Assembly (NCBI GenBank): GCA_964641245.1
Contig: CAZXML010000001.1
Location: 45,065 to 109,064 of the forward strand
Source of the DNA: an uncultured Gammaproteobacteria bacterium
GTDB lineage: Bacteria; Patescibacteriota; Patescibacteriia; Magasanikbacterales; GWA2-37-8
Direction: 5' to 3'
DNA: 64,000 bases
A program made the position numbers and the translations under genes. Position 1 is the stretch's first letter; each line of letters opens with the position of its first letter. The notes beneath the pieces were generated by a model. It saw only the letters and a list, made by a program, of their open reading frames with translations. It was not told where the DNA came from and did no database searches. Shown here piece after piece: positions 17,580-56,385 of this stretch.

Positions 17580-18992
17580 ATGTCAGATAATAACGAAAAA
17601 ATGGACAAAATCATTTCTCTGGCCAAACGACGCGGTTTTGTGTTTCCGGGTTCGGAAATCTATGGCGGTTTGGCTAATAGTTGGGATTATGGGCCGTTGG
17701 GGCATCTGCTTAAGCAAAACATTAAAAACGCCTGGTGGAAGTTTTTTGTGCAGGAAAGAGGGGATATGGTGCCGTTAGATACGGCCATTATTATGAACCC
17801 AAAGGTTTGGGAGGCGTCCGGGCATTTGCAAAATTTTAGCGATGAACTGGTGGAATGCAAGAAATGCCATCACCGGTTTAGGGCCGACCATTTACTGGAA
17901 GCCGAAAGCGCCAAGCCGGGTTACGACAAAGAAGCCCCTAGAGTTCTGCCACCGCCCGCGGGCGGGGTGCCGCCTCATGGCGGCAAATTAAAATGCCCTG
18001 ATTGCGACGGCGGGCTTACTGAACCAAAACAATTCAATTTAATGTTTAAAACCTATTTGGGAGTAAACGAAGATACTTCCACCACGGCCTATTTGCGTCC
18101 GGAAACCGCGGCCGGTATGTTTGTTAATTTCAAAAATATTTTAAATGTTACCCGACGCCGTTTGCCTTTTGGTATTGCCCAAATCGGCAAAAATTTCCGC
18201 AACGAAATCACGCCGGGAAATTTTATTTTCCGCACCCGTGAATTCGAAATCGGGGAGTTTGAATATTTTATCAACCCAAAAGACTGGGAAAAAGTTTTTG
18301 AAATGTGGTTGAAAGAAATAAAACGCTGGTGGCAGGATGTTATGCAAATAGACATGGACAATCTGGTCTGGCACGAAATTCCGGAAGGCGAACGCGCTCA
18401 CTACAGCAAACGCACGGTAGATATAGAATACAAATATCCGTTTGGCGTTAAAGAACTGCACGGCATTGCCTACCGCACGGATTTTGATTTATCCCGCCAC
18501 GAAACCGTCAGCGGTCAGGATATGCATTACACCGATTTAGAAACAAACGAAAAATTCATTCCGCATGTAATAGAACCGACTTTTGGCATCGACCGTATGC
18601 TGTTGGTGTGTTTGCTGGAGGCGTATCACGAAGAAGCGGCTCCGACCACTGTTGAGGGAGAATCCGAAGCACGTATCGTCATGAAATTCCCGAAACACCT
18701 CGCTCCAATTCAGGTTGCCGTGTTGCCGTTATCCAAAAAAGAAGAATTATCCAATGTTGCCAAAGATTTAGCAGACAGTTTGCGCAAAGATTTTTCTGTG
18801 GAATATGACGAAACCCAAAGCATCGGCAAACGCTATCGCCGGCAAGATGAAATCGGTACACCGTATTGTATAACAGTAGATTTTGAATCGTTAGAGGACA
18901 AAAAAGTGACAGTGAGGGATAGGGATACGATGGAACAAGAAAGGGTTGAGATGGTGGGGTTAGGGGAGTACTTGAGAAATAAATTTATTTAG
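17580..18992 (+). CDS. glyQS: Glycyl-tRNA synthetase (class II, alpha2 type) carrying a 13-aa in-frame hairpin-element insertion
   Basis: LAKRRGFVFPGSEIYGGL...WDYGPLG, motif 2/3 region and the anticodon-binding C-terminus are present. The start is probably the ATG at 17580 or 17601. The insertion LPPPAGGVPPHGG maps to nt 17946-17984. Confidence 0.85.
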   Translation: MSDNNEKMDKIISLAKRRGFVFPGSEIYGGLANSWDYGPLGHLLKQNIKNAWWKFFVQERGDMVPLDTAIIMNPKVWEASGHLQNFSDELVECKKCHHRFRADHLLEAESAKPGYDKEAPRVLPPPAGGVPPHGGKLKCPDCDGGLTEPKQFNLMFKTYLGVNEDTSTTAYLRPETAAGMFVNFKNILNVTRRRLPFGIAQIGKNFRNEITPGNFIFRTREFEIGEFEYFINPKDWEKVFEMWLKEIKRWWQDVMQIDMDNLVWHEIPEGERAHYSKRTVDIEYKYPFGVKELHGIAYRTDFDLSRHETVSGQDMHYTDLETNEKFIPHVIEPTFGIDRMLLVCLLEAYHEEAAPTTVEGESEARIVMKFPKHLAPIQVAVLPLSKKEELSNVAKDLADSLRKDFSVEYDETQSIGKRYRRQDEIGTPYCITVDFESLEDKKVTVRDRDTMEQERVEMVGLGEYLRNKFI

Positions 18993-20393: not shown

Positions 20394-20524
20394 TGTCATC
20401 CCCCCGACCCATTAATTGTCATTCTGAGCAAAGCGAAGAATCTCTGTCCGTTCGGCGATTGAGACAGAGATCCTTCACTGCGTTCAGGATGACAGTTGGC
20501 GCAAGACTCGCTCGGAATGACAAA
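20394..20524. repeat. Cluster of a TGTCATCC fragment, a family-A element and a partial GAATGACA terminus
   Basis: CTGTCATCCCCCCGACC, then the full A element 20417-20494, then CTCGGAATGACA. Confidence 0.75.
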
Positions 20525-26185: not shown

Positions 26186-28940
26186 AAAAGCTGAACCATT
26201 AAATTTAATTTCCTGCGACCGTTGCCACGCAACCGGTTATATTGGGTTTGGCAAATGCCCGGAATGCAAGGGAATGGAAATGGGAATCAGCAAAAGGGGT
26301 AAATGGCTTTATTGGGATTATCCGCTTACCCGTTATAATTTATCTTTGCAAAGCGGACGGCGGATTTTAAACCGTATTCGTTTAATTACGGCGCTGGTTT
26401 TTTGGTTAACTTGTTGGATTTGGGTTGGAGTCACTGCCTACAAGGCAGATTTAGGCATTGTTTTTCGTGATCCCATTCATTGGCGTAATTTTATTTTAAC
26501 TTTGGGAAACAGCACCACCATTTTATTTTGGATGGGCGTAATCAGTTTATTTTATTTTTGGTACAGGATTATCCGGCAAAAAGAATTGGTGGGCGCGGTG
26601 GAAACTTTTAATTATGATGAAAAAAATAAAAAAGATTTAGTTGTTGGTTCCTGGGTTGACGCAAAAAAATTACCAAAGCGAAAAAAACATAATATCGCCG
26701 ACGCTTTTACCGAAGAGGCTTTATCCGCGCTGGCCAAGGCGTATCGTTTTGCTGATAAGAATGGCGCCAAAGAAGCAACTCCCGAACATTTATTTTATAC
26801 CCTGCTATCATTCAACAGAATCAGTAATATTTTTATCAGACTAGGCATTCCGGCTTCGTCACTACAAAAAGAATTGGTACCGTTGTTGCCAACCCACCCC
26901 AACCCCGCCCGAGCGGGGAATCGAGAAATGCCAACAGTGTCCAAAGATTTTCAACAAATTATTTTTCAGGCTTACGAATCGGCCTATAGCGCGCACCAGG
27001 ATTACGTTAGCGTCACCGAACTACTTATCATCGCCCTGCAGGAAACTCCGGCCATCGCCAAGGTTTTATTTAATTTTAATATCAGCGAACGTGATTTGGC
27101 AAATGTTATAGAGTGGGCCAGAATGCGCGAAAAACTTCACCGTCAATACCTCAAATTCAAACGGGCGGCCAGTCATCATTCCAAATACGGCATGGACAAA
27201 GCTATGACCGCGCTGGCCACTCCTTATTTAAATAGTTTCAGTTCCGACATTACCATGCTGGCGCATTACGGCCAGTTAAATCAATGCGTGGCCCGCTCCA
27301 AAGAAATAGAAGAAATTTATCAGGTTATAGACAGTGGTGAACACAATGTATTGCTGGTGGGGGAACATGGCGTCGGTAAAAAAACAATTGTGGAAGGCAT
27401 TGCGCAAAGCATGATAGAAGACGACGTGCCGGCCAGACTAAAAGACAAACGTTTGGTGCGTTTAAGTGTGTCGGCGCTGCTCGCCGGTACCAGTCCGGCC
27501 GGAGCGGTAGAAAGATTGCGGAATATAATGAACGAAATGTCGCGGGCGCGCAATGTAATTTTATTTATTCATAATTTACACGAACTGGTTGGCGTGGCGG
27601 CCGGCGAGAGCGGGAGTTTAGATATCGCGGACACCCTCACGGAATTTTTAGACAGTGATAAATTTTTAACCATCGCCACCACCACCACCGAAGATTTTTC
27701 GGAACATATTTCCAACTCTTCAATTAAAAGCGTGTTTACAAAAATAGATATTGCCGAGATGACCGAAGATCAGGCCATACAGGTTTTGGAATCGCGGGCG
27801 GGCGCGCTGGAGTATAAACAAAATGTATTTTTTTCTTACGATGCCGTGGCCAAAGCCGTGGAATACGCCGTTAAATTTATTCACGAATCATTTTTGCCAG
27901 GAAACGCTTTGGAACTTCTTACCGAATCCGCCACTTATACTCACAATAAAAAAGGCGGTAATTCCATCGTCACCAAAGAAGAAGTGGCGGCGGTAGTGAC
28001 CGAAAAAACCAAAATTCCTTTGTCCGCTATTTCCAGTGATGAATCCAGCAAACTCTTACTTTTAGAAGAAGAAATGCATGAACGCGTGATTGGCCAGGAT
28101 GAGGGCGTAACCGCCGTCGCCAATGCTTTGCGCCGGGCCCGCGCCGAAATGCGTTCGTCCAAACGGCCCATCGCCAACTTTTTATTTTTGGGCCCCACCG
28201 GCGTAGGCAAAACCGAACTTGCCAAAACCATCGCCCAAGTGTACTTTGGAGGTGAAAACAAAATGATTCGCCTAGACATGAGCGAGTATCAGGACAAGAG
28301 CAGTATATATAGGTTGATTGGCATGCCCGGAGCCAAAGGAACCGGCATACTTACCGAGGCTGTCCGCCGGAGTCCGTTTTCTCTTTTATTGCTGGATGAA
28401 ATAGAAAAAGCCGACCATGATGTGCTGAATTTATTTCTGCAGGTTATGGATGAAGGCCGGCTTAGCGACAGCGCCGGACACGTATTTGATTTTACCAATG
28501 TAATTTTAATCGCCACATCCAATGCCGGTACGGCCTATGTGCAAGAACAAAATAAAAAAGGCGTGGCGCACGAAGTTTTGCTGGACAGTCTTTTGCACGG
28601 AGAATTGAAAGAATATTTCCGCCCGGAATTTTTAAATCGTTTTGACGGAATTATTTTGTTCAACGCCTTAACCCAGCCGGATATTAAAAAAATCGCCGGT
28701 TTAATGTTTGGCGCTATTGCCAAAAGCATGGAACAAAAAGGCGTGCAGTTGACGGCCACAGACGATGCCCTGGAATTTTTGGCCACCGCCGGTTTTGATC
28801 CGGAATTTGGCGCTCGGCCGATGCGCCGGGTTTTGCAGGAAAAAGTAGAAAATAAACTGGCAGAATTATTTTTACAGGGAAAATTAAAAAGAGGCAGTAT
28901 GGTGACGGTCGGGGCGGGAGGAGAGATAAATGTAAATTAA
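26166..28940 (+). CDS. ClpC/ClpA-like double AAA+ unfoldase with an N-terminal zinc ribbon and two TM helices
   Basis: CDRCHATGYIGFGKCPECKG zinc ribbon, then TM segments, then Clp_N. D1 Walker A LLVGEHGVGKKT. D2 Walker A FLGPTGVGKTELAK. Sensor-2 GARPMRRV. Confidence 0.8.
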   Translation: MLRMQFKKAEPLNLISCDRCHATGYIGFGKCPECKGMEMGISKRGKWLYWDYPLTRYNLSLQSGRRILNRIRLITALVFWLTCWIWVGVTAYKADLGIVFRDPIHWRNFILTLGNSTTILFWMGVISLFYFWYRIIRQKELVGAVETFNYDEKNKKDLVVGSWVDAKKLPKRKKHNIADAFTEEALSALAKAYRFADKNGAKEATPEHLFYTLLSFNRISNIFIRLGIPASSLQKELVPLLPTHPNPARAGNREMPTVSKDFQQIIFQAYESAYSAHQDYVSVTELLIIALQETPAIAKVLFNFNISERDLANVIEWARMREKLHRQYLKFKRAASHHSKYGMDKAMTALATPYLNSFSSDITMLAHYGQLNQCVARSKEIEEIYQVIDSGEHNVLLVGEHGVGKKTIVEGIAQSMIEDDVPARLKDKRLVRLSVSALLAGTSPAGAVERLRNIMNEMSRARNVILFIHNLHELVGVAAGESGSLDIADTLTEFLDSDKFLTIATTTTEDFSEHISNSSIKSVFTKIDIAEMTEDQAIQVLESRAGALEYKQNVFFSYDAVAKAVEYAVKFIHESFLPGNALELLTESATYTHNKKGGNSIVTKEEVAAVVTEKTKIPLSAISSDESSKLLLLEEEMHERVIGQDEGVTAVANALRRARAEMRSSKRPIANFLFLGPTGVGKTELAKTIAQVYFGGENKMIRLDMSEYQDKSSIYRLIGMPGAKGTGILTEAVRRSPFSLLLLDEIEKADHDVLNLFLQVMDEGRLSDSAGHVFDFTNVILIATSNAGTAYVQEQNKKGVAHEVLLDSLLHGELKEYFRPEFLNRFDGIILFNALTQPDIKKIAGLMFGAIAKSMEQKGVQLTATDDALEFLATAGFDPEFGARPMRRVLQEKVENKLAELFLQGKLKRGSMVTVGAGGEINVN

Positions 28941-31599: not shown

Positions 31600-31609
31600 A
31601 GCGTTGTTT

Positions 31610-31735
31610 TGTCATTGCGAGGAGTGAAGCGACGCGGTCCCGACCGCGGTCGAGGATCCTCGATTCACTATCGGGACAATCCCATTGTTGGCAGCACCAG
31701 TATTGTGGGATTGCTTCGCTTTGCTCGCAATGACA
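31610..31735. repeat. Family-B miniature palindromic element (TGTCATTGCGAGGAG...GGTCCCGACCGCGGTCGAGGATCCTCGATTCACTATCGGGACAATCCC...CTCGCAATGACA)
   Basis: A full copy in the recR-ybaB spacer. Related copies lie at 35429 (in frame within a CDS) and 36887 (inverted). Confidence 0.85.
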
Positions 31736-31736
31736 A

Positions 31737-32036
31737 TTACTTCTTAAGCATGCCGTCAAATCCGCCCATCTCCTGCATTTTGCCGGCCATTATTTTTTGC
31801 ATTTTTTTGGTGGCGTCGCCGTGCGCGTCTTTGATGGCGTTTTGCAGTTTTTCTTTTTTAGCCGGATTTAACATTTCGTCGTCTATGGCCACGCCGGTTA
31901 GCTGTAAATTTCCATCCATAGTTAAAGCCACGCCACTACTGTGGCTGGTGACGGACTCGCCCGCTAAAGCGCCCTGAAGTTTTTTACCCTGGTCGCGCAG
32001 GTCTTTGAATTGTTTTAATTTGCTAAACACTGACAT
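31737..32036 (-). CDS. ybaB: Nucleoid-associated protein YbaB/EbfC
   Basis: 99 aa. Motifs ...GGFDGMLKK and the DnaX-YbaB-RecR context. Confidence 0.85.
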   Translation of the reverse strand: MSVFSKLKQFKDLRDQGKKLQGALAGESVTSHSSGVALTMDGNLQLTGVAIDDEMLNPAKKEKLQNAIKDAHGDATKKMQKIMAGKMQEMGGFDGMLKK

Positions 32037-34167: not shown

Positions 34168-36471
34168 ATGATTTCTCGCCTTTTACTGAAAAATATGGTT
34201 CCGGCCGGGGCTTTGTCTGCCTTGGCTTATTTGGTTTTTGAAAAATGGCATAATTGGTTTTTGGGAACCCTGGTTTTATTTTTATATTTTTTGTTTGTTT
34301 CGGCCAAAACACAAGGGGTGTTGGTAAATTATTTCGGATTTACAAAATCGTTGCGGATTAGACTGTTGGCATTTTTTTTAAGTCTGGCCACATTGGGCTG
34401 GTTTTTGGGAATTTTTATATTTTTTGATTATTTTAATGGTTTGGCGGTATTTTTATCTTTTTTTGTAAACGCACTGGCGTGGTCACTCGCCACTCAATCG
34501 CTCTCTCCCCTTTTAGGGGAGAGACAGAGAGAGGGGTATACGGCGGGCATTGACGCACAAACAGATACCCCACCCCTCGCCCCTCCCCTAATAGGGGAGG
34601 GAGACCTTGAACCGCCCCACGCCAAAATCAGTGTCTTAATTTATCTGGGCCTGGTAATTTACGGATTTTATCTTTTGATGCAATCCAAAACCGGTGGCGT
34701 CATTTCTTCGCCGTGGCAAACTATTAATCAGAGTTATGTGTGGATTTTTTTGTTGGCTACTTTTTTGCTGGGTGCGTTAATATTTTTCTCAAAGATTTCT
34801 CTAAAAACTCTACTGTTCCTTCTTATAGTACATGCATTTTTACTTCACAGTTATTTACCGCTCACTCACGAATTATTTTACGGCGCGGACGGTTGGAGAC
34901 ATATTGCGAATGAACAGAGATTGGTGGAAGGAAAATCATTCTTAGAAGCAAAGCTTTCTACTGACACAAAAAATCAGAAGTCTGAAGTCCAAAGTCTGAA
35001 GTCCAAAGCCGGGCTTTTGTCTTATGCCAATTATTGGGGAACAAATGCGGCGCTGTCAAAAATACTGCAAATAGATTTAATTTCTTTGACCAAATGGTTT
35101 TTGCCGATTTCCTGGTCAATAATTTTTACTATTTTGTTATTAGAGATTGGATTGGCGTTGGGCTGGTCCGGCCGGAATTCATTGCTCTTTGCTTGGGCCG
35201 GAATGTGGCCGTTTGCTTTGCAGGTTGGCGGTTCTTTTTCTTTGCCCGTGAACTGGGGCTTCCTAATTTTTGTTTTGTTGTTTTTGCTGTTGATTAAAAG
35301 AATAAAAGAGCCAAATGACGAACAGAAAAATATTTTGTTGGCACTTGGACTTGGTTCAGCGCTGGGGTATTTATTATTTTTTGTTTTGTATTGGATGAGT
35401 TTTTTCTTAATGTCGCTTGTCTCACATTTGTCATTGCGAGGAGAGCAGCGACGCGGTCCCGACCGCGGTCGAGGATCCTCGATTCACTATCGGGACAATC
35501 CCATTGTCAGCACTACAGTATTTTGGGATTGCTTCGCTCTGCTCGCAATGACAGTGGTTGCGACATTGATTTTACCGGTTTTAGAGTTAGCTGGGAAGTT
35601 TAGTGTGTGGGATAGCGGGGTAAATATTTTGTTGCAAGCAAAACAATTTGCCGGCAATTTTTTATCTTTATATTTGGCCGCCGGCCCGCGTCCGCACGAT
35701 ATTATTGGCGGGAATATTTTGTTTAATCAAATGCCCGCTTCAATTTTTACATCAAATATTCTTACGCAATGGCTATGGTGGTTGCCAATGGTAATTTTGT
35801 CCGCCATCATTTTTATTATCCTGGGAATTAAGCGAAACAGAAAAGACCCAATTTATAAATTTATCCTGACTATTTTTTCCGTCCTGCTCACCAGTTATTT
35901 TTTATCCTTCTATTTATTATCCGGCGAGCGCTTGTTTTCCCGTCGTCTGGACGCAACACTGGCGCTCTTGTTTTTGATTTTGCTTTTCTACGGAGTAAAA
36001 GATATTCTTGATAAAAAGTGTATGGCTGGTTTAGCGGTAGTTATTTTATCCCTCGCCATCACCGCTTCATATACTTTGGGTCCGGATACTTATACTGTCA
36101 GCGCCAATCAATATACTGCCATCAATTATGTCTGGTCCCAAGAACAAAATAGTAATACGCATTGTGTTTTAGGCAACACTTATCCACTGCTCGCGCTGGA
36201 AGCCGTTTCCGGTAAAGAAATCATCGGCGGCGGTTTCCCCATAGATGCCAGTTTTGCCCAACCGGAACGGGAAGAACTATTTAAACAAATGAATATAGCC
36301 ATCAACGACAATTTACTTTCTCAAACAGCGTCTTTGACCAAAGCCGACCATTGTTGGTTTGTGGGGGAGAAGGCGAATTTTGCACAGCAAGGAATTTTGG
36401 GCGGTAATAGCACAAAAATATTTGGTGATACGGCGGTGGTGAGATATAATACTGCGGTCAATCTAAAATAA
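34168..36471 (+). CDS. Large polytopic membrane protein (767 aa) carrying two in-frame repeat-element insertions
   Basis: More than 12 predicted TM helices. A family-G insertion at 34497-34612 encodes SLSPLLGERQREGY...PPLIGEGDLEP. A family-B insertion at 35429-35553 encodes SLRGEQRRGPDRGRGSSIHYRDNPIV. Confidence 0.55.
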   Translation: MISRLLLKNMVPAGALSALAYLVFEKWHNWFLGTLVLFLYFLFVSAKTQGVLVNYFGFTKSLRIRLLAFFLSLATLGWFLGIFIFFDYFNGLAVFLSFFVNALAWSLATQSLSPLLGERQREGYTAGIDAQTDTPPLAPPLIGEGDLEPPHAKISVLIYLGLVIYGFYLLMQSKTGGVISSPWQTINQSYVWIFLLATFLLGALIFFSKISLKTLLFLLIVHAFLLHSYLPLTHELFYGADGWRHIANEQRLVEGKSFLEAKLSTDTKNQKSEVQSLKSKAGLLSYANYWGTNAALSKILQIDLISLTKWFLPISWSIIFTILLLEIGLALGWSGRNSLLFAWAGMWPFALQVGGSFSLPVNWGFLIFVLLFLLLIKRIKEPNDEQKNILLALGLGSALGYLLFFVLYWMSFFLMSLVSHLSLRGEQRRGPDRGRGSSIHYRDNPIVSTTVFWDCFALLAMTVVATLILPVLELAGKFSVWDSGVNILLQAKQFAGNFLSLYLAAGPRPHDIIGGNILFNQMPASIFTSNILTQWLWWLPMVILSAIIFIILGIKRNRKDPIYKFILTIFSVLLTSYFLSFYLLSGERLFSRRLDATLALLFLILLFYGVKDILDKKCMAGLAVVILSLAITASYTLGPDTYTVSANQYTAINYVWSQEQNSNTHCVLGNTYPLLALEAVSGKEIIGGGFPIDASFAQPEREELFKQMNIAINDNLLSQTASLTKADHCWFVGEKANFAQQGILGGNSTKIFGDTAVVRYNTAVNLK

Positions 36472-36882: not shown

Positions 36883-36886
36883 TAAT

Positions 36887-37012
36887 TGTCATTGCGAGCG
36901 AAGCGAAGCAATCCCAAAATACTGTAGTGCTGACAATGGGATTGTCCCGATAGTGAATCGAGGATCCTCGACCGCGGTCGGGACCGCGTCGCTACGGCTC
37001 CTCGCAATGACA
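36887..37012. repeat. Family-B element (inverted relative to 31610)
   Basis: TGTCATTGCGAGCGAAGCGAAGCAATCCC...CGAGGATCCTCGACCGCGGTCGGGACC...CTCGCAATGACA. Confidence 0.85.
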
Positions 37013-37660: not shown

Positions 37661-39658
37661 TTGTCGTTTAGCTCTCTCATTTCGATTATGGAACCAAGCG
37701 AAAAAGAACCGGACATTATAGGCAACCCGGATGTCAACTATTTTGCCACCACCAATTTTCGCAATAAAAACCGGAAATTTGGCATAAAGCTGGACGATCG
37801 CCGCCGGCATTTATATGTTGTGGGCAAAACGGGTATGGGCAAAACCACCATGTTAGAAAACATGGTTCTTAATGATATCTACGCGGGGCACGGCGTGGGA
37901 GTGGTAGATCCGCACGGCGATTTTGCCGAAAAAATTATAGATTATATTCCGGCTAATCGCATTAACGACGTGGTTTATTTTAATCCGTCCGATATTGATT
38001 TTCCAATCGGTTTTAATATTTTAGAAAGCATAGATCCGCGCTACCGCCATTTGGTGGCATCCGGACTTATGGGCGTTTTCAAAAAAATCTGGCCGGATGT
38101 GTGGAGCGCGCGCATGGAATACATTTTAAACAACACTCTTTTGGCCTTGCTGGAATTTCCCAACACCACCCTGCTAGGCATCAACCGACTGCTGGCCGAC
38201 AACGCTTACCGCAAACGCGTCATTAAAAATTTAAAAGATCCTGTTATCCGTTCATTCTGGGAAACGGAATTTGCCGGTTATAACGACCGCTATAAACAGG
38301 AAGCGGTCGCTCCGGTACAAAATAAAATCGGTCAATTTTTGTCGGCTTCGGTTATCCGCAACATTGTGGCGCAGACAAAATCGCGCATCAACATCCGCGA
38401 AATCATGGACACCAAGAAAATTTTTATCATGAACTTATCCAAAGGCAGAATCGGCGAAGATAATTCCCGGTTGCTGGGTGGTATGCTTATCACCAAAATT
38501 CAATTGGCGGCCATGGAAAGAGTAGACACTCCGGAAAAAGACCGCAAAGATTTTTTTCTTTATGTAGATGAATTTCAAAATTTTGCCACGGAAAGTTTTT
38601 CCAACATTTTATCCGAAGCGCGCAAATACCGGTTAGACTTAACCATGGCGCACCAATATATGGAGCAGTTGGATGAAACCGTGCTGGCCGCGGTAATTGG
38701 TAACGTGGGTACGCTGGTAACATTCCGGGTGGGTTCTACGGATGCGGAAATTCTGGCCAAAGAATTCGCGCCTACTTTTATAGAAACCGATTTGGTTAAT
38801 TTAACAAAATTTCAAATTTATTTAAAATTAATGATAGACGGCGTTGCTTCACAGCCTTTTTCCGCCAACACTTTATCGCCGATAAATATTTCCACCCATA
38901 GCACAGAAAAAGTTATTAAAGTTTCCCGCGAACGCTACGCCACCAGCCGGGAAAATATAGAAGACAAAATTATGCGTTGGACCGGTATGGAAGCCGGCGG
39001 AACGGGGGATACCGATGTAGACGAGGACGATGAAAATTACGGCGAGGATGAAGAGGGTATGCCGGTTTTGTTAGATAAGATGGTTGCTCCACCAATGGTG
39101 CCGGTTGCTCCAAAAGCTCCGACTCCGTCTGCTGTAAAAAAACTCCCGATTCTGACTCCGAGTCAGAATCGAGGATCCTCGATTTTGCCCGAACGCAAAA
39201 TCGGGACAACCCCTCCGCCGGTCAAAAAATCAGAACCCGCTCCGGTTAAATCAGACATAAAAGACAGTCAGCCGATTTCATTGGTGGATACAAGTCAAAA
39301 GGGGATAAGTTTGTCGCAAGCAGTACAAACTAACAAACAACCTGTTAAAGTAGAGAAAAAACACGAACATAAACCGGTGCAGGTGAGTCAGACGGTTCCT
39401 AAACAAGCGACAAATGCCAACCCACCCCTACCCAGACGCCTCCCGACCGCGGTCGAGGATCCTCGATTCTCGAGAATCGGGACAAGCGGGGAATTGCCAA
39501 AACCGCCAGCGCCACCGGCGACACCGGCGTCGGTAATTCCGCCTAAACCTTTACCAATAAATCAAACAGAGAAAAAGATTTTCCCGGATAAAATTGTCCA
39601 CATAGACGATGACACGGATAATGGCCTGCCTGCCGGCAGGCAGGTTGACAAAAATTAA
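37661..39658 (+). CDS. TraD/VirD4/HerA-like P-loop NTPase with a Pro-rich low-complexity C-terminus that contains repeat-element insertions
   Basis: Walker A VVGKTGMGKTT, Walker B FFLYVDEFQNF, and an AHQYMEQL motif. The C-terminal 250 aa are P/K-rich with embedded CGAGGATCCTCG and CCTGCCTGCCGGCAGGCAGG hairpins. Confidence 0.5.
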   Translation: MSFSSLISIMEPSEKEPDIIGNPDVNYFATTNFRNKNRKFGIKLDDRRRHLYVVGKTGMGKTTMLENMVLNDIYAGHGVGVVDPHGDFAEKIIDYIPANRINDVVYFNPSDIDFPIGFNILESIDPRYRHLVASGLMGVFKKIWPDVWSARMEYILNNTLLALLEFPNTTLLGINRLLADNAYRKRVIKNLKDPVIRSFWETEFAGYNDRYKQEAVAPVQNKIGQFLSASVIRNIVAQTKSRINIREIMDTKKIFIMNLSKGRIGEDNSRLLGGMLITKIQLAAMERVDTPEKDRKDFFLYVDEFQNFATESFSNILSEARKYRLDLTMAHQYMEQLDETVLAAVIGNVGTLVTFRVGSTDAEILAKEFAPTFIETDLVNLTKFQIYLKLMIDGVASQPFSANTLSPINISTHSTEKVIKVSRERYATSRENIEDKIMRWTGMEAGGTGDTDVDEDDENYGEDEEGMPVLLDKMVAPPMVPVAPKAPTPSAVKKLPILTPSQNRGSSILPERKIGTTPPPVKKSEPAPVKSDIKDSQPISLVDTSQKGISLSQAVQTNKQPVKVEKKHEHKPVQVSQTVPKQATNANPPLPRRLPTAVEDPRFSRIGTSGELPKPPAPPATPASVIPPKPLPINQTEKKIFPDKIVHIDDDTDNGLPAGRQVDKN

Positions 39659-40706: not shown

Positions 40707-41948
40707 ATGTCCAAAGCAAATAAAAAAATAAAGGTTTTGTGTACCATGAGTGGCGGGGTGGATTCCTCGGTTGCCTCGGCTCTTTTGGTTGCCCAAGGCT
40801 ATGATGTTACTGGCGCATTCATGGTCAATTACGACGAAATTGGCCCGCAAGGCGAATCCTGCTGGACTAGTGATTATCAAGACGCTCTGCGGGTGGCGGC
40901 CAAGCTGGGCATACCGCTGATGCGTTTGGATTTTGTAAAAGAATATAAAAAAACCGTTTTGGATTATATGTATGAGGAGTACCGGAAAGGCAGAACGCCG
41001 AACCCGGATGTTTTGTGTAATAAGTTTGTAAAGTTTGGCGTGTGGTTGGAAAAGGCGAAGGAGTTGGGGTTTGATAAGCTCGCAACAGGTCACTACGCGC
41101 GTCTCGCAAATTCCCCGCTTGGGCCTGCCTGCCGGCAGGCAGGCGGGGTAAGGGGTGGGTTGGCGTTAATGGAAGCGATGGATGCCAACAAAGACCAAAC
41201 CTATTTTTTACACCAATTAAATCAGGAACAATTAAAATTCGTTTTATTTCCTATCGGAGAATACACCAAGCCCCAAGTTAGAAAATTGGCCAAAAAATTC
41301 AATTTACCAAATGCCGACAAGGAAGAAAGCATGGGAATTTGTTTTGTGGGCGAAGTGCCAATGAAAGAATTTTTATTGAAAAAAATTAAGGCGAAAAAAG
41401 GGAAAATTATTTTAAGTACTGGTGAACAAATTGGCGTGCACGATGGTCTGCCTTTTTATACTATCGGACAGCGCCAAGGCCTTCGGACGTCTTGTCATTC
41501 TGAACGGAGTGAAGAATCTCTGTCTCAATCGTCAAACGGACAGAGATCCTTCGCTGGCACTCAGGATGACAATACGCGACCGCTTTACGTTCTTGCTAAA
41601 AATTTTGAGAAAAACGAATTGGTAGTCGGCTACGAAGACGATCCGTTATTATATAAAAAAACCGCCGAAGTGTCGGAGGTAAATTGGGTAAGCGGGCAAC
41701 CACCGAAATTTCCCTTAAATTGCGAAGTCCGTTTGCGTCATCGACAATCACTGCAAAAGTGCCTCGTTGATTCCCCGCTTGTCCCGATTCTCGAGAATCG
41801 TGGATCCCGACTCACTGTCGGGAGGCGGTCTACGGGTAGGGGTGGGTTGGCCATTAAATTTTCCAAACCTCAACGCGCGGTAACCCCCGGCCAATTTGCT
41901 GTCTTCTATAAAAAAGGTGAATGTCTTGGCGGTGGAATAATAAACTAA
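40707..41948 (+). CDS. mnmA: tRNA-specific 2-thiouridylase MnmA carrying three in-frame palindromic-element insertions
   Basis: PP-loop CTMSGGVDSSVA and the conserved MnmA core. It is 413 aa against about 360 typical. Extra segments are encoded at 41107-41165, 41493-41571 (family A) and 41770-41855. Confidence 0.85.
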   Translation: MSKANKKIKVLCTMSGGVDSSVASALLVAQGYDVTGAFMVNYDEIGPQGESCWTSDYQDALRVAAKLGIPLMRLDFVKEYKKTVLDYMYEEYRKGRTPNPDVLCNKFVKFGVWLEKAKELGFDKLATGHYARLANSPLGPACRQAGGVRGGLALMEAMDANKDQTYFLHQLNQEQLKFVLFPIGEYTKPQVRKLAKKFNLPNADKEESMGICFVGEVPMKEFLLKKIKAKKGKIILSTGEQIGVHDGLPFYTIGQRQGLRTSCHSERSEESLSQSSNGQRSFAGTQDDNTRPLYVLAKNFEKNELVVGYEDDPLLYKKTAEVSEVNWVSGQPPKFPLNCEVRLRHRQSLQKCLVDSPLVPILENRGSRLTVGRRSTGRGGLAIKFSKPQRAVTPGQFAVFYKKGECLGGGIIN

Positions 41949-41959
41949 AAAAGAAAAAG

Positions 41960-42290
41960 ACCTACCAGACCGCCCCTTTTTTGTTTTTTTATGGGGCTGG
42001 CTCTGATAAGTCTCATTCCGATTGTCCTGTGCTTTCGGATGCTCTCTTCCCGTAGGTGGGAGCATTGGGTTAACCAACCCCGATGGCGGTCGCTGACCAT
42101 GGTTCTTCGGCCTAGTGGCCTATCATGTTCTGCGCCATCGCGCTCGGCACGGTCTGTAGTACCCTCCTTCCTCGGTGTGGGTGTTGCTGGGGTTGATTTT
42201 TGAGCGGTGTGAGCAACCCAGGTCCCGCTGGGTTTCACGTTTTATATACTACTTTGCCTCTTGAGTTTTGTCAAGAGTAGTGATAAGATT
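41960..42290. ncRNA. ORF-free, GC-rich structured region; candidate non-coding RNA of unknown class
   Basis: About 300 nt with markedly higher GC than the flanks, containing many short complementary segments. Only short, low-complexity ORFs are present. Confidence 0.25.
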
Positions 42291-42297
42291 TATCAAT

Positions 42298-44229
42298 ATG
42301 ATTAACTCTCACGAATTACGTCAAAAATATCTGGAATTTTTCAAATCAAAAGGGCATGCCATTATTCCTTCGGCTTCTTTGATTCCGGAAAATGATCCCA
42401 CTGTGTTATTTACCACAGCCGGCATGCACCCGCTTGTTCCATATTTGCTTGGAGAAAAACATCCGGGTGGCAAACGGGTTACCAGCGCGCAAAAATGTGT
42501 GCGTACAGGCGACATAGACGAAGTGGGCGACAACCGTCATCTTACTTTTTTTGAAATGATGGGCAATTGGTCTTTTGGCGACTACTTCAAGAAGGAAGCG
42601 ATAGAATGGAGCTGGGAATTTTTAACATCTACAGTTTATTTAGGATTAGACCCGCGCCAATTGGCCGTGTCTGCTTTTGAAGGTGAAGAGGGGATTCCGC
42701 GCGACAACGAAGCCGCGGAAATTTGGCAATCTTTGGGAATGAGTGAAGAAAGAATTGCGTTTTTACCGAGAAAAAATAATTGGTGGGGTCCGGCGGGTCA
42801 AACCGGTCCGTGCGGTCCGGATACGGAAATGTTTTTTTGGCGCCCCAGTCATTCGACAGGGCAAGCGGCGGGTGAATTTCCTCCGGCCGGCAGTAATCCC
42901 AAAACAGACGAAGACAATTGGTTGGAAATTTGGAACGATGTTTTCATGCAGTACAATAAAAATACCGCCGGCGCCTACGAACCGTTAAAACAAACCAATG
43001 TAGATACGGGTATGGGTTTGGAACGGACGCTGGTGGTTCTAAATGGTTATGCGGATGTTTTTCAGATAGACACGCTTTGGCCGGTTATCCAAAAAATTCA
43101 AAACATTTCCGGGCGCGAGTATATAGAAAGCGCGGACGTCACCCGTTCCATGAGAATAATTGCCGACCATTTGCGTACGGCCACTATGATTATGGCCGAC
43201 GATACCAAAATCGCGCCCAGTAATGTGGATCAGGGTTATATTGTCCGTCGGTTAATCCGCCGCGCCGTGCGTCACGGCCGGCTGTTAGGCATGCACGCCA
43301 ATTTTTGCAGTATTATTTCTCAAGAAGTAATAAATATTTTGGCCGATGTTTATCCGGAGCTGGAAAAAAATAAAGAATTTGTGTTAACCGAAATGGCGCG
43401 GGAAGAAAGCGGTTTTAAAAATACCATTGAACAAGGTTTAAAAGAATTTGAAAAATTATTGCGCGGATTTCAAATGGCATTCGAAAAAATGCCGATTTTG
43501 CCTCGGCAAAATCGAGCATCCTCGATTTCAACGCCAGTTGAAATCGGGACAGGCCAAATGGTAAAACAAATTTCCGGCAAACAAGCATTCAAGTTATTTG
43601 AGACTTTTGGTTTTCCTTTGGAAATAACCCAGGAGCTGGCCAACGAAAATAATTTAATGGTAGATGTGAACGGTTTTGAGGAAGCGTTTAAAGCGCATCA
43701 GGATTTATCGCGCGTTGGCGCCGAACAAAAATTCAAAGGCGGGCTGGCCGATACCGGCGAGATGTCCACCAAATATCATACTGCCACCCATTTGCTCCAT
43801 GCCGTACTGCGCAAAGTGCTCGGGACGCATGTAGAACAGCGGGGCAGTAACATTACCGCCGAACGTTTGCGTTTTGATTTTTCTCATCCGGAAAAAATGT
43901 CGGAGGAACAAAAAAAACAAGTGGAAGATTTAATAAATTACGCCATCGGCCATGACTACCATGTATCTTTCGCCGAAATGTCTGTAGATGAAGCTAAAGC
44001 CAAGGACGCGATGGGTTTATTTGGCGATAAATACGGCGCCCAAGTTAAAGTTTATTCCATCGGCGATCCCAATTCCGCTCCGGACGCTCACGCCAATTCC
44101 CTAACATTCAGCCGCGAAATTTGCGGCGGTCCTCATGTAGAACACACCGGCACTCTCGGTAAATTTAAAATTATAAAAGAAGAAGCCGTGAGTTCGGGAA
44201 TTCGCCGTATCAAAGCTATTTTGGAATAA
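42298..44229 (+). CDS. alaS: Alanyl-tRNA synthetase, compact form lacking the C-Ala domain, with one in-frame element insertion
   Basis: Catalytic motifs FTTAGMHP, QKCVRTGDID and FFEMMGNWSFGDYFK. Editing domain HTATHLLH...CGGPHV. Insertion at ~43495-43560. Confidence 0.85.
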   Translation: MINSHELRQKYLEFFKSKGHAIIPSASLIPENDPTVLFTTAGMHPLVPYLLGEKHPGGKRVTSAQKCVRTGDIDEVGDNRHLTFFEMMGNWSFGDYFKKEAIEWSWEFLTSTVYLGLDPRQLAVSAFEGEEGIPRDNEAAEIWQSLGMSEERIAFLPRKNNWWGPAGQTGPCGPDTEMFFWRPSHSTGQAAGEFPPAGSNPKTDEDNWLEIWNDVFMQYNKNTAGAYEPLKQTNVDTGMGLERTLVVLNGYADVFQIDTLWPVIQKIQNISGREYIESADVTRSMRIIADHLRTATMIMADDTKIAPSNVDQGYIVRRLIRRAVRHGRLLGMHANFCSIISQEVINILADVYPELEKNKEFVLTEMAREESGFKNTIEQGLKEFEKLLRGFQMAFEKMPILPRQNRASSISTPVEIGTGQMVKQISGKQAFKLFETFGFPLEITQELANENNLMVDVNGFEEAFKAHQDLSRVGAEQKFKGGLADTGEMSTKYHTATHLLHAVLRKVLGTHVEQRGSNITAERLRFDFSHPEKMSEEQKKQVEDLINYAIGHDYHVSFAEMSVDEAKAKDAMGLFGDKYGAQVKVYSIGDPNSAPDAHANSLTFSREICGGPHVEHTGTLGKFKIIKEEAVSSGIRRIKAILE

Positions 44230-49205: not shown

Positions 49206-50651
49206 ATGTCCTACACCGTCGCCCAAAACACCTCTTTTCTCACCATCGCCTCTGTTCTGCAAAAGGTAATTTCTTTTTTTTACTTTATTTTTGTCGCCCG
49301 AATAATTCAGGTAGAAAATACCGGCGTGTATTTTTTTGCCATTGCTTTTACAACTATTTTTATTGTGGTGGCCGATTTTGGTATGGGCTCGGTTTTAACC
49401 AGAGAAGCGTCCCGTTTTCCGGACAGATCCGAAAGTTATTTCAACACCGTTTTTTGGACAAAAGTAATTTTTGGCGCCGGCACTTATTTATTGGTGGTTT
49501 TGTTCGCCAATATTTTAAAATATCCGGAAACCACCAAACTGCTTATCTATGTTTCCGGTATTACCATGTTCCTGGACAATCTTACCGGCGCGTTCAACAG
49601 TATTTTTCGGGCCAAGAAAAATCTAATCTATGAATCTCTGGGTATTATCATCTCCCAATTCACTACCTTGCTTATCGGCACTTTTGCGTTGCTTAATCAC
49701 TGGCCGCTTGTCTGGCTTATCCTGGCCTACACTATTCCCAGTTTTTTAAACTTAATTTACATTAGAATTTTTTTAAAAAAAGTTTACAACATCGGCGTTC
49801 ATTTTGTCTGGCAAAGCCAGGTGTTTAAAATTTTTCTGGCCACAGCCCTGCCGTTTGCTTTGGCGGGTATTATCGGCCGGTTGTTTTCTTTCAGCGATTC
49901 TCTGCTTATGTCTAAACTGCTTTCCGCTAAAGAGCTGGGGTGGTGGAGCGTGTCGTACAAAATCACTTTTGCTTTCCAGTTTATTCCCGTGGCCTTATCC
50001 GCCAGTGTTTACCCCGTTTTCAGCAGTTTATTTTTAACCAACAAAATGGCCATTGGTCCGTTGTTCGAAAAATCATGGCGTTATTTATTTGCCATTATTT
50101 TCCCCATCGCCTTTGGGCTCATTGCCATTGCCGATCCGGTGGTACGCAAAGTTTTTGGCCAGGAATTTTCGCCCTCCATCACACCCCTGCGATTTTTGCT
50201 GATTAGTTTAATTTTTGGATTTTTGTCATTTATAACCGGCGCTTTGCTCAATGCCATCAACAAACAAAAAACACAAACCGCACTAATGGCTGTAGTTTTA
50301 GTTATAAATGTTATTTTAAATATAATTTTATTGCCGAAGCTGGGAATTACCGGCGCAGCCATTTCGGCGCTGGCCAGCAATGCCGTTCTTTGTCTGGCCG
50401 GCCTCTATTTTGCCCGCCGCCAAGTGGCCATAGATTCCACAAAACTTCTAAAATACATCAACCAAACCCTCTGGCCATCCCTAGCCATGGCCGCCGTCGT
50501 CTACTACCTTTCCAATAAAATTCATTACCTCCCCACAATTTTAATCGGTGGCGCAATTTATCTGATTTTGATTTGTTTTACCGGCGTTGTTACCAGAAAC
50601 CATGTTTCGATAATTATTGATAAATTAAAGCCGAAACGTCGAATTGCGTAG
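49206..50651 (+). CDS. Polysaccharide flippase (Wzx/MOP superfamily)
   Basis: 481 aa with ~14 TM helices. The loop pattern is flippase-like. Confidence 0.6.
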   Translation: MSYTVAQNTSFLTIASVLQKVISFFYFIFVARIIQVENTGVYFFAIAFTTIFIVVADFGMGSVLTREASRFPDRSESYFNTVFWTKVIFGAGTYLLVVLFANILKYPETTKLLIYVSGITMFLDNLTGAFNSIFRAKKNLIYESLGIIISQFTTLLIGTFALLNHWPLVWLILAYTIPSFLNLIYIRIFLKKVYNIGVHFVWQSQVFKIFLATALPFALAGIIGRLFSFSDSLLMSKLLSAKELGWWSVSYKITFAFQFIPVALSASVYPVFSSLFLTNKMAIGPLFEKSWRYLFAIIFPIAFGLIAIADPVVRKVFGQEFSPSITPLRFLLISLIFGFLSFITGALLNAINKQKTQTALMAVVLVINVILNIILLPKLGITGAAISALASNAVLCLAGLYFARRQVAIDSTKLLKYINQTLWPSLAMAAVVYYLSNKIHYLPTILIGGAIYLILICFTGVVTRNHVSIIIDKLKPKRRIA

Positions 50652-50663
50652 CGTCGTCAATTT

Positions 50664-50744
50664 TGTCATTCTGAGCAAAGCGAAGAATCTCTGTCCGTAC
50701 AATCACAACTAGACAGAGATCCTTCACTACGTTCAGGATGACAA
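50664..50744. repeat. Family-A element
   Basis: TGTCATTCTGAGCAAAGCGAAGAATCTCTGTCCG...GACAGAGATCCTTCACTACGTTCAGGATGACA. Confidence 0.85.
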
Positions 50745-51913: not shown

Positions 51914-52663
51914 ATGGAATTGATAAGTGTCATCATCCCCGTCTACAACCACGCCCACACCCTAAAAAGATCCCTAGATTCTATTTTTAACCAAACCTAC
52001 CGCCCTTTAGAGGTAATCGTAGTCAACGACGGCAGCACCGACAATTTCTCCGAAGTCATGTCAAGCTGTCATCCTGAACTTGTTTCAGGATCTATCACTG
52101 TAAAAACAATCTCCCAACCCAACTCCGGCGCCCCCACCGCCCGCAACAACGGCTTCGCCCTCTCCAAAGGCGACTACGTCATCTTCTGGGACGCCGACAC
52201 CCTCGCCAACCCCCAAATGCTCCAAAAAATGTTCTCTTATTTACAAAAACACCCCGACGCTTCTTATTCCTACTCCCAATTCAAATTCGGCTGGAAAACC
52301 ATAAAAAGCCACCCCTTCGACGCTCAAAAACTAAAGCAATTAAATTACATCGACGTCACCTCCCTCATCCGCCGCCAATCTCTCAATTGTCATCCTGAAC
52401 GCAGTGAAGGATCCCTCTCTGTCTGCCCCTTCGACCCATCCCTAAAACGTTTCCAAGACTGGGACCTCTGGCTCACTCTCTTATCCCGTGGAAAAACCGG
52501 CGTCTTCATCCCCGAAGTCCTCTACGAAAAAGTAGTCGGCTCCCGCGAAGGCATCAGCACCTGGCTCCCCAGTTTTATGTATCTTCTACCCTGGAAAACC
52601 AAAGAAGTAAAAAAATACGAATCCGCCCGTTCAATCATTATAAAAAAACACAATCTATTGTAG
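51914..52663 (+). CDS. Glycosyltransferase family 2, with two in-frame partial palindromic-element insertions
   Basis: ISVIIPVYNHAHTLKRSL...LEVIVVNDGSTD, and a D.D region. The insertions encode SSCHPELVSGSITV (52063-52100) and NCHPERSEGSLSVCP (~52378-52425). Confidence 0.7.
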   Translation: MELISVIIPVYNHAHTLKRSLDSIFNQTYRPLEVIVVNDGSTDNFSEVMSSCHPELVSGSITVKTISQPNSGAPTARNNGFALSKGDYVIFWDADTLANPQMLQKMFSYLQKHPDASYSYSQFKFGWKTIKSHPFDAQKLKQLNYIDVTSLIRRQSLNCHPERSEGSLSVCPFDPSLKRFQDWDLWLTLLSRGKTGVFIPEVLYEKVVGSREGISTWLPSFMYLLPWKTKEVKKYESARSIIIKKHNLL

Positions 52664-52665: not shown

Positions 52666-52860
52666 TTTTGTCATCCTGAACTTGTTTCAGGATCTTTGTC
52701 CGTCAGTTGTCATCCTGTCCGTCATTTGTCATCCTGACAAAGGCCGTAGCCGCCGAAGGATCTATACCTATTAAAGAAAATCGTAAATTCGCGGCTTGTC
52801 ATCTAGTTTTTTAATTGTCATCCTGAACTTGTTTCAGGATCTATCATTTGTAAAACACCT
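52666..52860. repeat. Cluster of family-C / TGTCATCCTG hairpin elements
   Basis: At least four TGTCATCCTG termini. It matches 55184-55320. Confidence 0.75.
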
Positions 52861-52885
52861 CAGGAGAGCGTAAACTACCACCAAC

Positions 52886-53200
52886 ATGCCCACCAAAACC
52901 ATCCTCAACCGCCTCCAAAAAACCTGCGCGTGTTGCGGTAAAGCAATTCATGTCATCGTCTATTCTCCCGCAGCGAGCGGGATCCTCGACTCGTGGAGTC
53001 GGGAAAAAAAAGATTATCGCGGCGGCCATTTCTTTGGAAAACTCCCGCTATATACCAAAAAAGAGGAAGCGCGCGCCCACAGTTTTGGTTTTACAAAAGA
53101 ACTTTTTGGAAAAACAGAGGTAAGAGTCATGAAAAAAGACCCTAAGCCGTATGGGTATGTGGAGTATTGGGAGTGTCCGAAGTGTTATTGGCAAGGATAA
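52886..53200 (+). CDS. Small Cys-rich (zinc-ribbon-like) protein
   Basis: CACCGK...CPKCYW. It contains a CCCGCAGCGAGCGGGATCCTCGACTCGTGGAGTCGGG hairpin in frame. Confidence 0.45.
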   Translation: MPTKTILNRLQKTCACCGKAIHVIVYSPAASGILDSWSREKKDYRGGHFFGKLPLYTKKEEARAHSFGFTKELFGKTEVRVMKKDPKPYGYVEYWECPKCYWQG

Positions 53201-55340: not shown

Positions 55341-55352
55341 AATACAACCAAT

Positions 55353-56248: not shown

Positions 56249-56385
56249 ATTTGACAAATCATTGTATGTACGTTATTATGTACATATCCGTATTCCCCGC
56301 TTGGGCGGGGTAGGGGTGGGTTGGCCACTTCATTGTCATCCCGACCGCAGTGGAGGGATCCCTTAACCATTTTAATTAATATAAT

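Follow-up and report, generated by a model that had tools for sequence, protein, structure and literature searches.

Palindromic repeats apparently retained in frame as surface loops of the tRNA 2-thiouridylase MnmA in a groundwater Patescibacteria genome

In a 64,000-nucleotide (nt) stretch of a metagenome-derived genome of the Magasanikbacterales lineage of Patescibacteria (hereafter, the window; NCBI GenBank assembly GCA_964641245.1, contig CAZXML010000001.1, positions 45,065 to 109,064 of the forward strand), the mnmA gene, which encodes tRNA 2-thiouridylase, contains three extra segments that are absent from some of its syntenic orthologs and that belong to families of palindromic repeats dispersed over the window. 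We consider it likely that small, non-autonomous, hairpin-forming repeats became part of the mnmA coding sequence and are tolerated there as loops of an enzyme that keeps working. A first-pass annotation, made from the letters of the window alone, had described these segments as in-frame palindromic insertions similar to Rickettsia palindromic elements (RPE); the coordinates of all the elements discussed below are given in Table 1.

The host gene itself is well characterized by comparison. Its product displays a three-domain architecture (Pfam PF03054, PF20259 and PF20258), is alignable with the Escherichia coli and Streptococcus pneumoniae MnmA, and matches the solved MnmA of S. pneumoniae, Bacillus subtilis and E. 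coli with E-values of 4e-83 to 5e-77 (E ~4e-83 for PDB 2hma/9hlv); the stretches of the query that remain unmatched in these alignments are approximately amino acids (aa) 136-151, 262-288 and 356-380. Across 120 homologs, 69 alignment columns are invariant and, by definition, are kept in the window MnmA also, with S15-S21, C104 and C212 occupying invariant or near-invariant columns. Outside the inserts, the core of the protein shows 78-86% aa identity to the ten orthologs compared and the core of the gene 75-79% nucleotide identity to orthologs, with an identity of only 53-59% at third codon positions, which is indicative of purifying selection on mnmA. Judging from the preserved catalytic residues and fold, and from this selection, the gene is functional. 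The first-pass estimate of 413 aa against about 360 aa in a typical MnmA agrees with the length of 355 aa in the orthologs that lack the segments, and the pseudogene that it named as a refuting outcome is contradicted by the single open frame with the catalytic residues in place.

The origin of the segments is illuminated by the comparison of orthologous loci. A search of 5.8 billion proteins yielded close homologs of 337-464 aa from Patescibacteria, mostly labelled Magasanikbacteria, and the DNA of four of these (P0002, P0003, P0004 and P0008) was compared with the window by codon alignment. All four loci share the gene order TrwB-like ATPase, small open reading frames (ORFs), mnmA, alaS, gtrA. 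P0008 (355 aa) lacks all three segments, as does P0010 (355 aa, synteny-confirmed); relative to P0008, the window gene has 12, 25 and 20 additional codons at sites 1, 2 and 3, respectively, and one aa elsewhere, 58 in total. P0004 carries the site-2 element alone, with junctions identical to those in the window gene, and the closest orthologs, P0002 and P0003, have elements of the same family as in the window (family E) at both site 1 and site 3, the content nested in them being different. Because syntenic orthologs lack the segments, the solved MnmA structures are gapped at these positions and the DNA of the segments is repeated elsewhere in the window, the codon alignments indicate that all three are repeat-element insertions held in frame and not ancestral sequence. 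The insertions are lineage-specific, as the first-pass annotation anticipated, in the sense that P0008 and P0010 are devoid of them; they are not private to this genome, given the occupied sites in P0002, P0003 and P0004. Counting independent gains on the gene tree was attempted and given up: the neighbor-joining tree and the table of loop contents are informative, but identity along mnmA is mosaic, with the N-terminus nearest to P0004 and P0019 and the C-terminus nearest to P0003, so that gains, losses and recombination are not separable.

The three elements share the ability to form strong hairpins (minimum free energies of RNA folding of -33.1, -37.9 and -35.2 kcal/mol at sites 1, 2 and 3, respectively), all three keep the reading frame, and they differ in construction. 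The basic unit of family E is 34 nt long and has the form ATTCCCCGC-TTGG-GCGGGG-TAGGGGTGGGTTGGC, in which a short hairpin leads into a G-rich tail. At site 1, this unit is enlarged by 21 nt that center on a perfect 22-nt palindrome, of which a second copy is found at 39623-39644, in the tail of the TrwB-like ATPase ORF. We read the 21 extra nt as a 20-nt palindrome and one extra A located eight bases downstream (GTAGGGG changed to GTAAGGGG); this length is a multiple of three, so that the frame is kept. Site 2 is occupied by a family-A element. The element at site 3, previously described as an E/B hybrid, resolves into a family-E shell with two nested hairpins (modules 1 and 2) and a partial match to the composite element at 39416-39494, with which it has the first nested hairpin in common, the second being different. 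In P0002, module 1 reads CGATCCACGAGGATCG, with a T:A pair replaced by C:G on both arms and pairing kept, and the family-C elements at 31608-31739, 35427-35553 and 36883-37012 enclose modules related to module 2. Hairpins nested within the loops of other hairpins are a recurrent pattern. The first-pass coordinates were exact for site 2, are refined to 41110-41164 for site 1, and extended 4 nt too far at the end of site 3 (41855 instead of 41851); the peptides quoted for the elements were right, except that the first of them ends in six residues, LMEAMD, that stem from native MnmA and not from the element. The junction-spanning tryptic peptides predicted from the window MnmA include LANSPLGPACR, SEESLSQSSNGQR, SFAGTQDDNTRPLYVLAK and GGLAIK.

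That the elements are dispersed repeats, as originally proposed, is borne out by alignment of the mnmA copies with intergenic and other genic copies in the window and by their counts. The family-A 26-mer from the start of site 2 has 8 matches in the window at no more than 3 mismatches, compared to 0 in 100 shuffled sequences, and the family-E 13-mer from the start of sites 1 and 3 has 8 matches, compared to a mean of 1.6 in shuffles, none of which reached 8. Comparison of the window with itself using BLAST reveals some fifty repeated stretches that are mostly palindromic, many of them starting with TGTCAT and ending with ATGACA, along with many further families. In family A and other elements with TGTCAT-type ends, 17-20 of the 22 terminal bases are complementary, that is, these elements have terminal inverted repeats; family E, a hairpin with an asymmetric tail, has none. 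The intergenic relatives of family A span 72-146 nt, and one of them (21290-21435) encloses another TGTCAT element. Besides mnmA, in-frame copies of repeats are present in the window in the genes for glycyl-tRNA synthetase (GlyRS), a ClpB-like ATPase, the TrwB-like ATPase (39416-39494 and 39623-39644) and a glycosyltransferase; the GlyRS repeat has an intergenic copy at about 22424-22456.

Several features of these families stand apart from the question of mnmA. Intergenic family-A elements begin 2-34 nt past the stop codon of the upstream gene (1298-1321, 15829-15857, 18992-19004, 20383-20417, 21288-21290 and 50651-50664, stop codon to element start) and might function as 3'-end hairpins, either terminators or mRNA stabilizers. 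The family-E tail GGGCGGGGTAGGGGTGGG (for example, at 56304-56321) fits the canonical G-quadruplex motif, with four runs of at least three G and short loops; such a quadruplex would compete with the family-E hairpin, and the motif is unusual for a genome with 43% G+C (42.8% in the window). A family-C element of 125 nt, TGTCATTGCGAGG...CTCGCAATGACA with a nested hairpin, lies at 35429-35553 within ORF 34168-36471 (767 aa, no Pfam match). At positions 22390-22456, 35 nt duplicating the 5' half of tRNA-Thr(UGU) are directly followed by the palindromic repeat CCACCGCCCGCGGGCGGGGTGCCGCC, which is also the in-frame repeat of GlyRS (17942-17974). The intact tRNA gene lies nearby, at 22493-22568, and the arrangement has the appearance of a relic left there by a rearrangement or an insertion.

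Structural modeling places the inserts in loops. In an AlphaFold2 model built from the 120-sequence alignment, the mean predicted local distance difference test (pLDDT) score is 86.9, with values above 90 in the core, and comparison with Foldseek gives template modeling (TM) scores, normalized to the target, of 0.90-0.91 against 2hma and 2det. The only extended stretches of low confidence are aa ~136-151, 262-290 and 356-380, with short dips near aa 41-50 and 201-220. Site 1 falls in the turn between the adjacent beta strands 131-135 and 152-156 (mean pLDDT 52 over the 10-residue block aa 141-150), site 2 in a long loop between the strands 241-245 and 293-299 (pLDDT 50-56 over aa 261-290), and site 3 in a hairpin between the likewise adjacent strands 350-355 and 381-390 (pLDDT below 50 over aa 359-377); the corresponding turns in S. 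pneumoniae MnmA are RDED|GTVH, GLGIGGQHGGDN and VHVKGEKTEV. Thus, in line with the surface-loop location envisaged in the first-pass annotation, all three inserts map to low-confidence loops of a confidently modeled MnmA fold, and they are apparently surface loops compatible with that fold.

The same positions are used over and over in other Patescibacteria. In the alignment of 120 homologs, extra segments of at least 6 aa follow aa 138 (site 1) in 53 homologs, aa 261 (site 2) in 56 and aa 359 (site 3) in 28, with further positions after aa 48 (31 homologs), aa 237 (9) and aa 401 (5). The extra peptides are translations of many repeat families (CHSERSEES, SFRAESRNPL, PLLTKEGRRGGL, SPLGRGRGGL and IRNPKSEIRNKSQ, among others), such that the same mnmA loops hold unrelated families in other species, and similar ends of the TGTCAT type are translated, in different species, in no fewer than two frames and apparently in all three (CHSE, LSFRAE and, from a more diverged arm, VILSE). 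To avoid the bias of gene callers, 80 species-level mnmA loci were retrieved as DNA, independently of gene calling. The gene is intact in one frame at 79 of the 80, the remaining locus running off its contig, and of the 80 genes analyzed (these 79 and that of the window), 58 contain, between them, 114 extra segments that are 8 aa or longer and are concentrated at the same few loops, every one of the segments being in frame and free of stop codons. These segments have a G+C content of 0.50, compared to 0.42 in the rest of the gene, and are more hairpin-prone (P = 7e-7). Removal from the RNA or bypass by the ribosome would let about two thirds of the segments break the frame, and none of them does; hence the segments are probably translated as part of MnmA.

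The family-E unit is by no means confined to mnmA. The 17-nt family-E tail, used as a probe against metagenome contigs, matched at least 120 loci; among the matches listed, 86 copies possess the 5' partner of the tail, of which 75 are the bare, near-invariant 34-nt unit, and 42 of the 86 are located inside long ORFs. The hosts confirmed with Pfam include UvrA, LeuRS, a UvrD-like helicase, GyrB, LigA, PriA, a Mur ligase, an M16 peptidase and radical SAM enzymes. Within ORFs the unit is read mostly as xSPLGRGRGGLA, and also in four other frames or orientations; the predominance of one reading in a unit that is open in five of the six frames fits selection on the peptide. In the bare unit and the composites seen, the distance from TTCCCCGC to TTGGC is 33, 54, 69, 78, 81 or 99 nt, in every case divisible by three; for several composites, on short contigs, a genic or intergenic location is uncertain. 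The 34-nt unit in metagenome contigs often lies within a larger palindrome. The idea that the elements are designed to be open in all frames was discarded, because the window copies have 47 open frames compared to 42 expected from shuffling, which is no enrichment.

Two further observations concern host genes. At five metagenome loci (L182, L116, L133, L184 and L186), a family-E unit is followed 10-20 codons downstream by an inverted E-like copy, so that the pair reads ...SPLGRGRGGLA-x(n)-EPTPGLEADPAQAGN and makes up a larger composite palindrome inside the host protein. The window alanyl-tRNA synthetase (alaS, 42268-44229; listed as 653 aa, or 631 aa if counted from the start that aligns with the orthologs of 616 aa) contains a window-specific insert of 20 aa, MPILPRQNRASSISTPVEIG, and another of 7 aa; its orthologs at the loci L003 and L005 have other repeat-like inserts, at different positions.

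These observations suggest a scenario for the evolution of the window mnmA. An element with TGTCAT...ATGACA inverted repeats and two elements built on the 34-nt unit of hairpin and G-rich tail, with hairpins nested in them, would be transcribed and translated along with mnmA, with a net gain to the protein of about 12, 25 and 20 residues, which would form flexible loops at one turn or loop position per MnmA domain. The MnmA fold and the catalytic residues would remain undisturbed, so that the enzyme would still be working. Such elements would spread within this genome and among related Patescibacteria genomes, and selection would act as a filter: in needed genes, the only survivors would be copies that preserve the frame, bring in no stop codon and are situated in permissive surface loops. 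A filter of this kind would lead to the repeated occupation of the same few loops by unrelated repeat families in different species. We infer both the neutrality or tolerance of the inserts and the manner in which the elements move.

Some of the data do not sit easily with this scenario and weigh against it. The codon alignment indicates that each element substitutes for most of the native turn instead of being plainly added to it; at site 1, for instance, IKQSKNSVK is replaced by L-A-NSPLG...GGLA, and a bare 34-nt unit would net just 15 nt there. The elements shared between orthologs are also more conserved at the nucleotide level than a purely neutral translated loop would predict: at site 3, codons for the same aa are identical between the window and P0003 in 24 of 25 cases, compared to 51 of 85 in the flanks (P = 5e-5), and at site 2, between the window and P0004, in 21 of 24 cases compared to 63 of 88 (P = 0.06). 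We read this excess as constraint on a DNA or RNA hairpin, as homogenization or gene conversion, or as younger age of the elements. Alignment of filled and empty sites by codon reveals no target-site duplication, native codons being replaced instead, and a simple cut-and-paste model is accordingly not established. Neither did the Pfam scan of 40 window ORFs detect any transposase family.

Further observations bear on the movement and the relatedness of the elements. No RAYT, Y1 (HUH) or IS200/IS605-type gene is found among the 40 ORFs scanned, and no obvious candidate for a mobilizing enzyme appears in the ORF lists of four multi-copy metagenome loci, which were read by eye, without a Pfam scan. 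The flanks of 65 unique family-E copies have only A(-3) and T(-1) as invariant positions, and these probably belong to the element itself. The polymorphic module in gyrB (L095 compared to L126) makes a net difference of 48 nt and has untidy junctions; neither here nor in the family-E flanks does a target-site duplication emerge. The orthologous site-3 copy is 94% identical to that in the window and closer to it than the paralog in the same genome, in which the second nested hairpin differs throughout. A bolder version of the scenario holds that ultra-short hairpin elements (prototype ATTCCCCGCTTGGGCGGGGTAGGGGTGGGTTGGC, read mostly as a flexible loop of Ser, Pro, Gly and Arg) spread horizontally, are adapted to intragenic life in groundwater Patescibacteria and repeatedly colonize the loops of essential proteins; the uniformity of the elements, which exceeds that of synonymous sites, would imply active homing or gene-conversion machinery. 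We regard this version as possible, although doubtful.

Among the alternatives to tolerated, translated insertions, the most serious is that the hairpins are maintained for a role at the nucleic acid level, in mRNA stability, in translational pausing between folding units, as a recognition site for a mobilizing or repair protein, or through a G-quadruplex in the GGGCGGGGTAGGGGTGGG tail, the encoded loops being a tolerated by-product. In favor of such a role are the synonymous positions of the shared elements, which are more conserved than the flanking gene, the very stable hairpins (-33 to -38 kcal/mol), the near-invariance of the 34-nt unit over many metagenome contigs, and the stems that stay paired while the loops vary, including one change on both arms (CGATTC/GAATCG to CGATCC/GGATCG). 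However, conservation could equally result from recent spread, from gene conversion between copies or from self-templating of palindromes, and covariation is anecdotal with a handful of comparable copies (five composites for the nested hairpins); furthermore, folding energy displays no consistent strand asymmetry, and many orthologs work without any insert. On balance, this explanation appears unlikely. A strand asymmetry proposed for family A, with G·U pairs confined to the transcribed strand, as the C/T and G/A differences between its arms had suggested, was rejected because folding of both strands gave inconsistent energies (-43.8 against -39.2, but -37.0 against -40.8). It is distinctly improbable that the loops are adaptive, for example, that Arg/Gly-rich GRGRGG loops aid the binding of tRNA or other nucleic acids. 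The predominant reading SPLGRGRGGLA does resemble RGG-type motifs, the hosts found are mostly DNA and RNA enzymes, and the same loops are used repeatedly; yet a bias of this kind is expected in Patescibacteria, whose genomes consist largely of information-processing genes, the corresponding loops of other species contain chemically unrelated peptides (Lys/Asn-rich, acidic or hydrophobic), membrane proteins carry the element in another frame, and close orthologs have no inserts.

The remaining alternatives deny that the segments are part of the protein or that the gene is real. If the segments were removed from the mRNA like tiny introns, or bypassed by the ribosome, the mature protein would be about 355 aa long. 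Patescibacteria are unusually intron-rich, a group I intron interrupts a tRNA-like gene of the window, and in forming strong hairpins the inserts are like translational bypass elements. Nevertheless, this explanation is very improbable, given that removal or bypass requires no constraint on frame or stop codons, whereas all 114 extra segments keep the frame and lack stop codons, that the nested extra DNA at site 1 is a frame-keeping 21 nt, that one reading of the family-E peptide predominates, and that 34-82 nt is far below the size of self-splicing introns. A search of Rfam, at the gathering threshold and at E <= 1, finds no family, intron or other, at the inserts, the sole sub-threshold match being a spurious miRNA hairpin (E = 0.34). 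A self-splicing intron or an intein was rejected on size, as the inserts comprise 55-82 nt and 19-28 aa, compared to more than 200 nt for a catalytic RNA core and more than 130 aa for an intein domain. As for an artifact of assembly or binning, or a decaying pseudogene, the genome was indeed assembled from a metagenome, and misassembly classically arises at repeats, but we find this barely credible: on both sides of every insert the gene runs on in one and the same frame, orthologous inserts are found at the same codons in assemblies made independently from other samples (4 contigs from ENA and NCBI for P0002, 2 for P0003), and the catalytic residues and the purifying selection are intact.

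If insertion and tolerance is the correct interpretation, its consequences extend beyond mnmA. In-frame 'selfish' palindromes in essential genes, regarded as a peculiarity of Rickettsia, would be present on a broad scale in an unrelated, very large, uncultivated radiation. For annotation and structure prediction, this would mean Patescibacteria proteins with extra loops and inflated lengths and spurious 'lineage-specific inserts' in alignments; for the study of protein evolution, a natural map of insertion-tolerant loops; and for the biology of mobile elements, very short, nested elements for which no mobilizing enzyme is known. Should the elements prove to be adapted to an intragenic existence, they would represent a major, so far undescribed source of variation in protein length in this radiation. 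The groundwater sites have been sampled repeatedly for metagenomes, and the matching metatranscriptomes or metaproteomes, if these exist, could test translation directly.

Table 1. The mnmA gene of the window, its inserted elements and related repeats (positions in nt from the start of the window)
Feature	Position	Strand	Description
mnmA (tRNA 2-thiouridylase) ORF	40707..41948	+	413 aa, intact; PP-loop SGGVDSS, catalytic cysteines C104 and C212
Site 1, family-E element	41110..41164	+	55 nt; read as (N)SPLGPACRQAGGVRGGLA, aa 135-153
Perfect 22-nt GC palindrome	41123..41144	.	GCCTGCCTGCC/GGCAGGCAGGC; nested in the hairpin loop of the site-1 E element; inverted-repeat search
Site 2, family-A element	41493..41571	+	79 nt; TGTCAT...ATGACA, long inverted arms; read as CHSERSEESLSQSSNGQRSFAGTQDD, aa 263-288
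Site 3, composite family-E element	41770..41851	+	82 nt; read as (D)SPLVPILENRGSRLTVGRRSTGRGGLA, aa 355-382
Nested hairpin module 1 of site 3	41785..41800	.	Perfect palindrome CGATTCTCGAGAATCG
Nested hairpin module 2 of site 3	41805..41823	.	TCCCGAC-TCACT-GTCGGGA
Minimal family-E unit, intergenic	56292..56325	+	34 nt; ATTCCCCGCTTGGGCGGGGTAGGGGTGGGTTGGC
Minimal family-E unit in ClpB-like AAA+ ORF (26166-28940)	26888..26921	-	34 nt; in frame, read as LPTHPNPARAGN
Composite family-E paralog in TrwB/VirD4-like ATPase ORF (37661-39658)	39416..39494	-	79 nt; C-terminal tail; in frame, read as ANPPLPRRLPTAVEDPRFSRIGTSGEL
Intergenic family-A copy	20417..20494	.	78 nt; loop sequence closest to the mnmA copy
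Other intergenic family-A copies	1321-1404, 15857-15928, 19004-19087, 21290-21435, 50664-50743		
Palindromic repeat in glycyl-tRNA synthetase (ORF 17532-18992)	17942..17974	+	In frame, read as RVLPPPAGGVPP
Partial family-A arm in family-2 glycosyltransferase (ORF 51914-52663)	52386..52423	+	In frame, read as CHPERSEGSLSV
Second TGTCAT-type arm in glycosyltransferase (ORF 51914-52663)	52066-52097		Read as CHPELVSGS

The window contains several other features of note. A group I intron (RF00028; 50.5 bits compared to a gathering threshold of 50) is located at 23270-23474 on the forward strand within a tRNA-like gene (23245-23530), the 5' exon of which, GGGTGGATTCCTGAGCGGTCAAAAGGGGCAGACTGTAG, ends at the GTA anticodon and the 3' exon of which ends with ...GGTTCGAATCCTACTCCACCCA; ARAGORN makes no call here. 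Introns in tRNA genes of Patescibacteria are the subject of a preprint (bioRxiv 10.1101/2025.07.03.662931). A DUF3800-V RNA (RF02964, 53.6 bits; 55031-55128, reverse strand) adjoins a gene for a DUF3800 protein (ORF 54363-55013), and near this locus about 250 nt at 52815-53025 are duplicated at 55243-55492. The spacer between mnmA and alaS (41949-42267, 319 nt) is G+C-rich and partly conserved in orthologous loci (e.g. GGGATAACCAATCCC), contains a CTCTTGA-N-TCAAGAG hairpin directly before alaS and folds slightly better than shuffled sequences (z = -2.1); it has no match in Rfam, including the T-box, and may be a leader RNA for alaS. A 3003-aa ORF (1434-10445) with long internal DNA repeats (3499-3836, 5515-5830 and 7549-7868) probably encodes a large repetitive surface protein.

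Among known systems, the elements resemble bacterial MITEs, or miniature inverted-repeat transposable elements (such as Correia, ERIC, BOX and cyanobacterial ones), in being small, non-coding and dispersed, in their in-frame fusion with host ORFs, which occurs occasionally in MITEs, and, in the case of family A, in the terminal inverted repeats TGTCAT...ATGACA. They differ from MITEs in that no target-site duplication is demonstrated and no cognate insertion sequence is found among the 40 window ORFs scanned, in the architecture of family E, where a hairpin is joined to an asymmetric G-rich tail in place of terminal inverted repeats, and in the share of family-E copies inside ORFs, about half, far above what is usual. 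Repetitive extragenic palindromes (REPs) are mobilized by RAYT (Y1/HUH) transposases, their loops are targeted by IS1397, and they are extragenic by definition. The highly uniform, multi-copy family E is similar to REPs in being a 34-nt imperfect palindrome with a GTAG-containing flank, the insertion of elements into the loops of other palindromes recalls IS1397, and transposition of the single-strand 'peel and paste' type would be consistent with the missing target-site duplication, so that a relationship may be suggested as a lead; in contrast to the extragenic REPs, family E has 42 of its 86 copies within long ORFs.

The closest parallel is that with the RPEs. Searches of the literature on palindromic elements, MITEs and in-frame insertion in Patescibacteria (candidate phyla radiation) found no description, most subscription journals being outside their coverage; RPE-like behavior was known before in Rickettsia, and the Patescibacteria instance is without a found precedent. 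It was the in-frame retention of RPEs inside genes that made them notable (Ogata et al. 2000, as summarized in PMC10969869), and, like RPEs (PMC10969869), the present elements comprise several dispersed palindromic families, both intergenic and in frame in unrelated, conserved housekeeping genes; the positions they occupy are, judging by the model, tolerated by the fold, and the host genome is likewise small and reduced. Unlike RPEs, which are about 100-150 bp long, they are built from a 34-nt unit and form composites of 55-146 nt; they are modular, with hairpins nested in hairpin loops, and are read in several frames and both orientations; one and the same protein loop is taken by different families in different species; and the hosts are groundwater Patescibacteria of the Magasanikbacteria, not Rickettsia. 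The RPE-like label of the first-pass annotation thus captures the behavior of the elements, namely, dispersed palindromes held in frame in conserved genes as loops, and does not extend to membership in the RPE families, from which size, architecture and phylum separate them; similarity in sequence to the RPEs is not expected. By this comparison, the mnmA elements are analogs of RPEs and not members of RPE families, set apart by their size, architecture and host.

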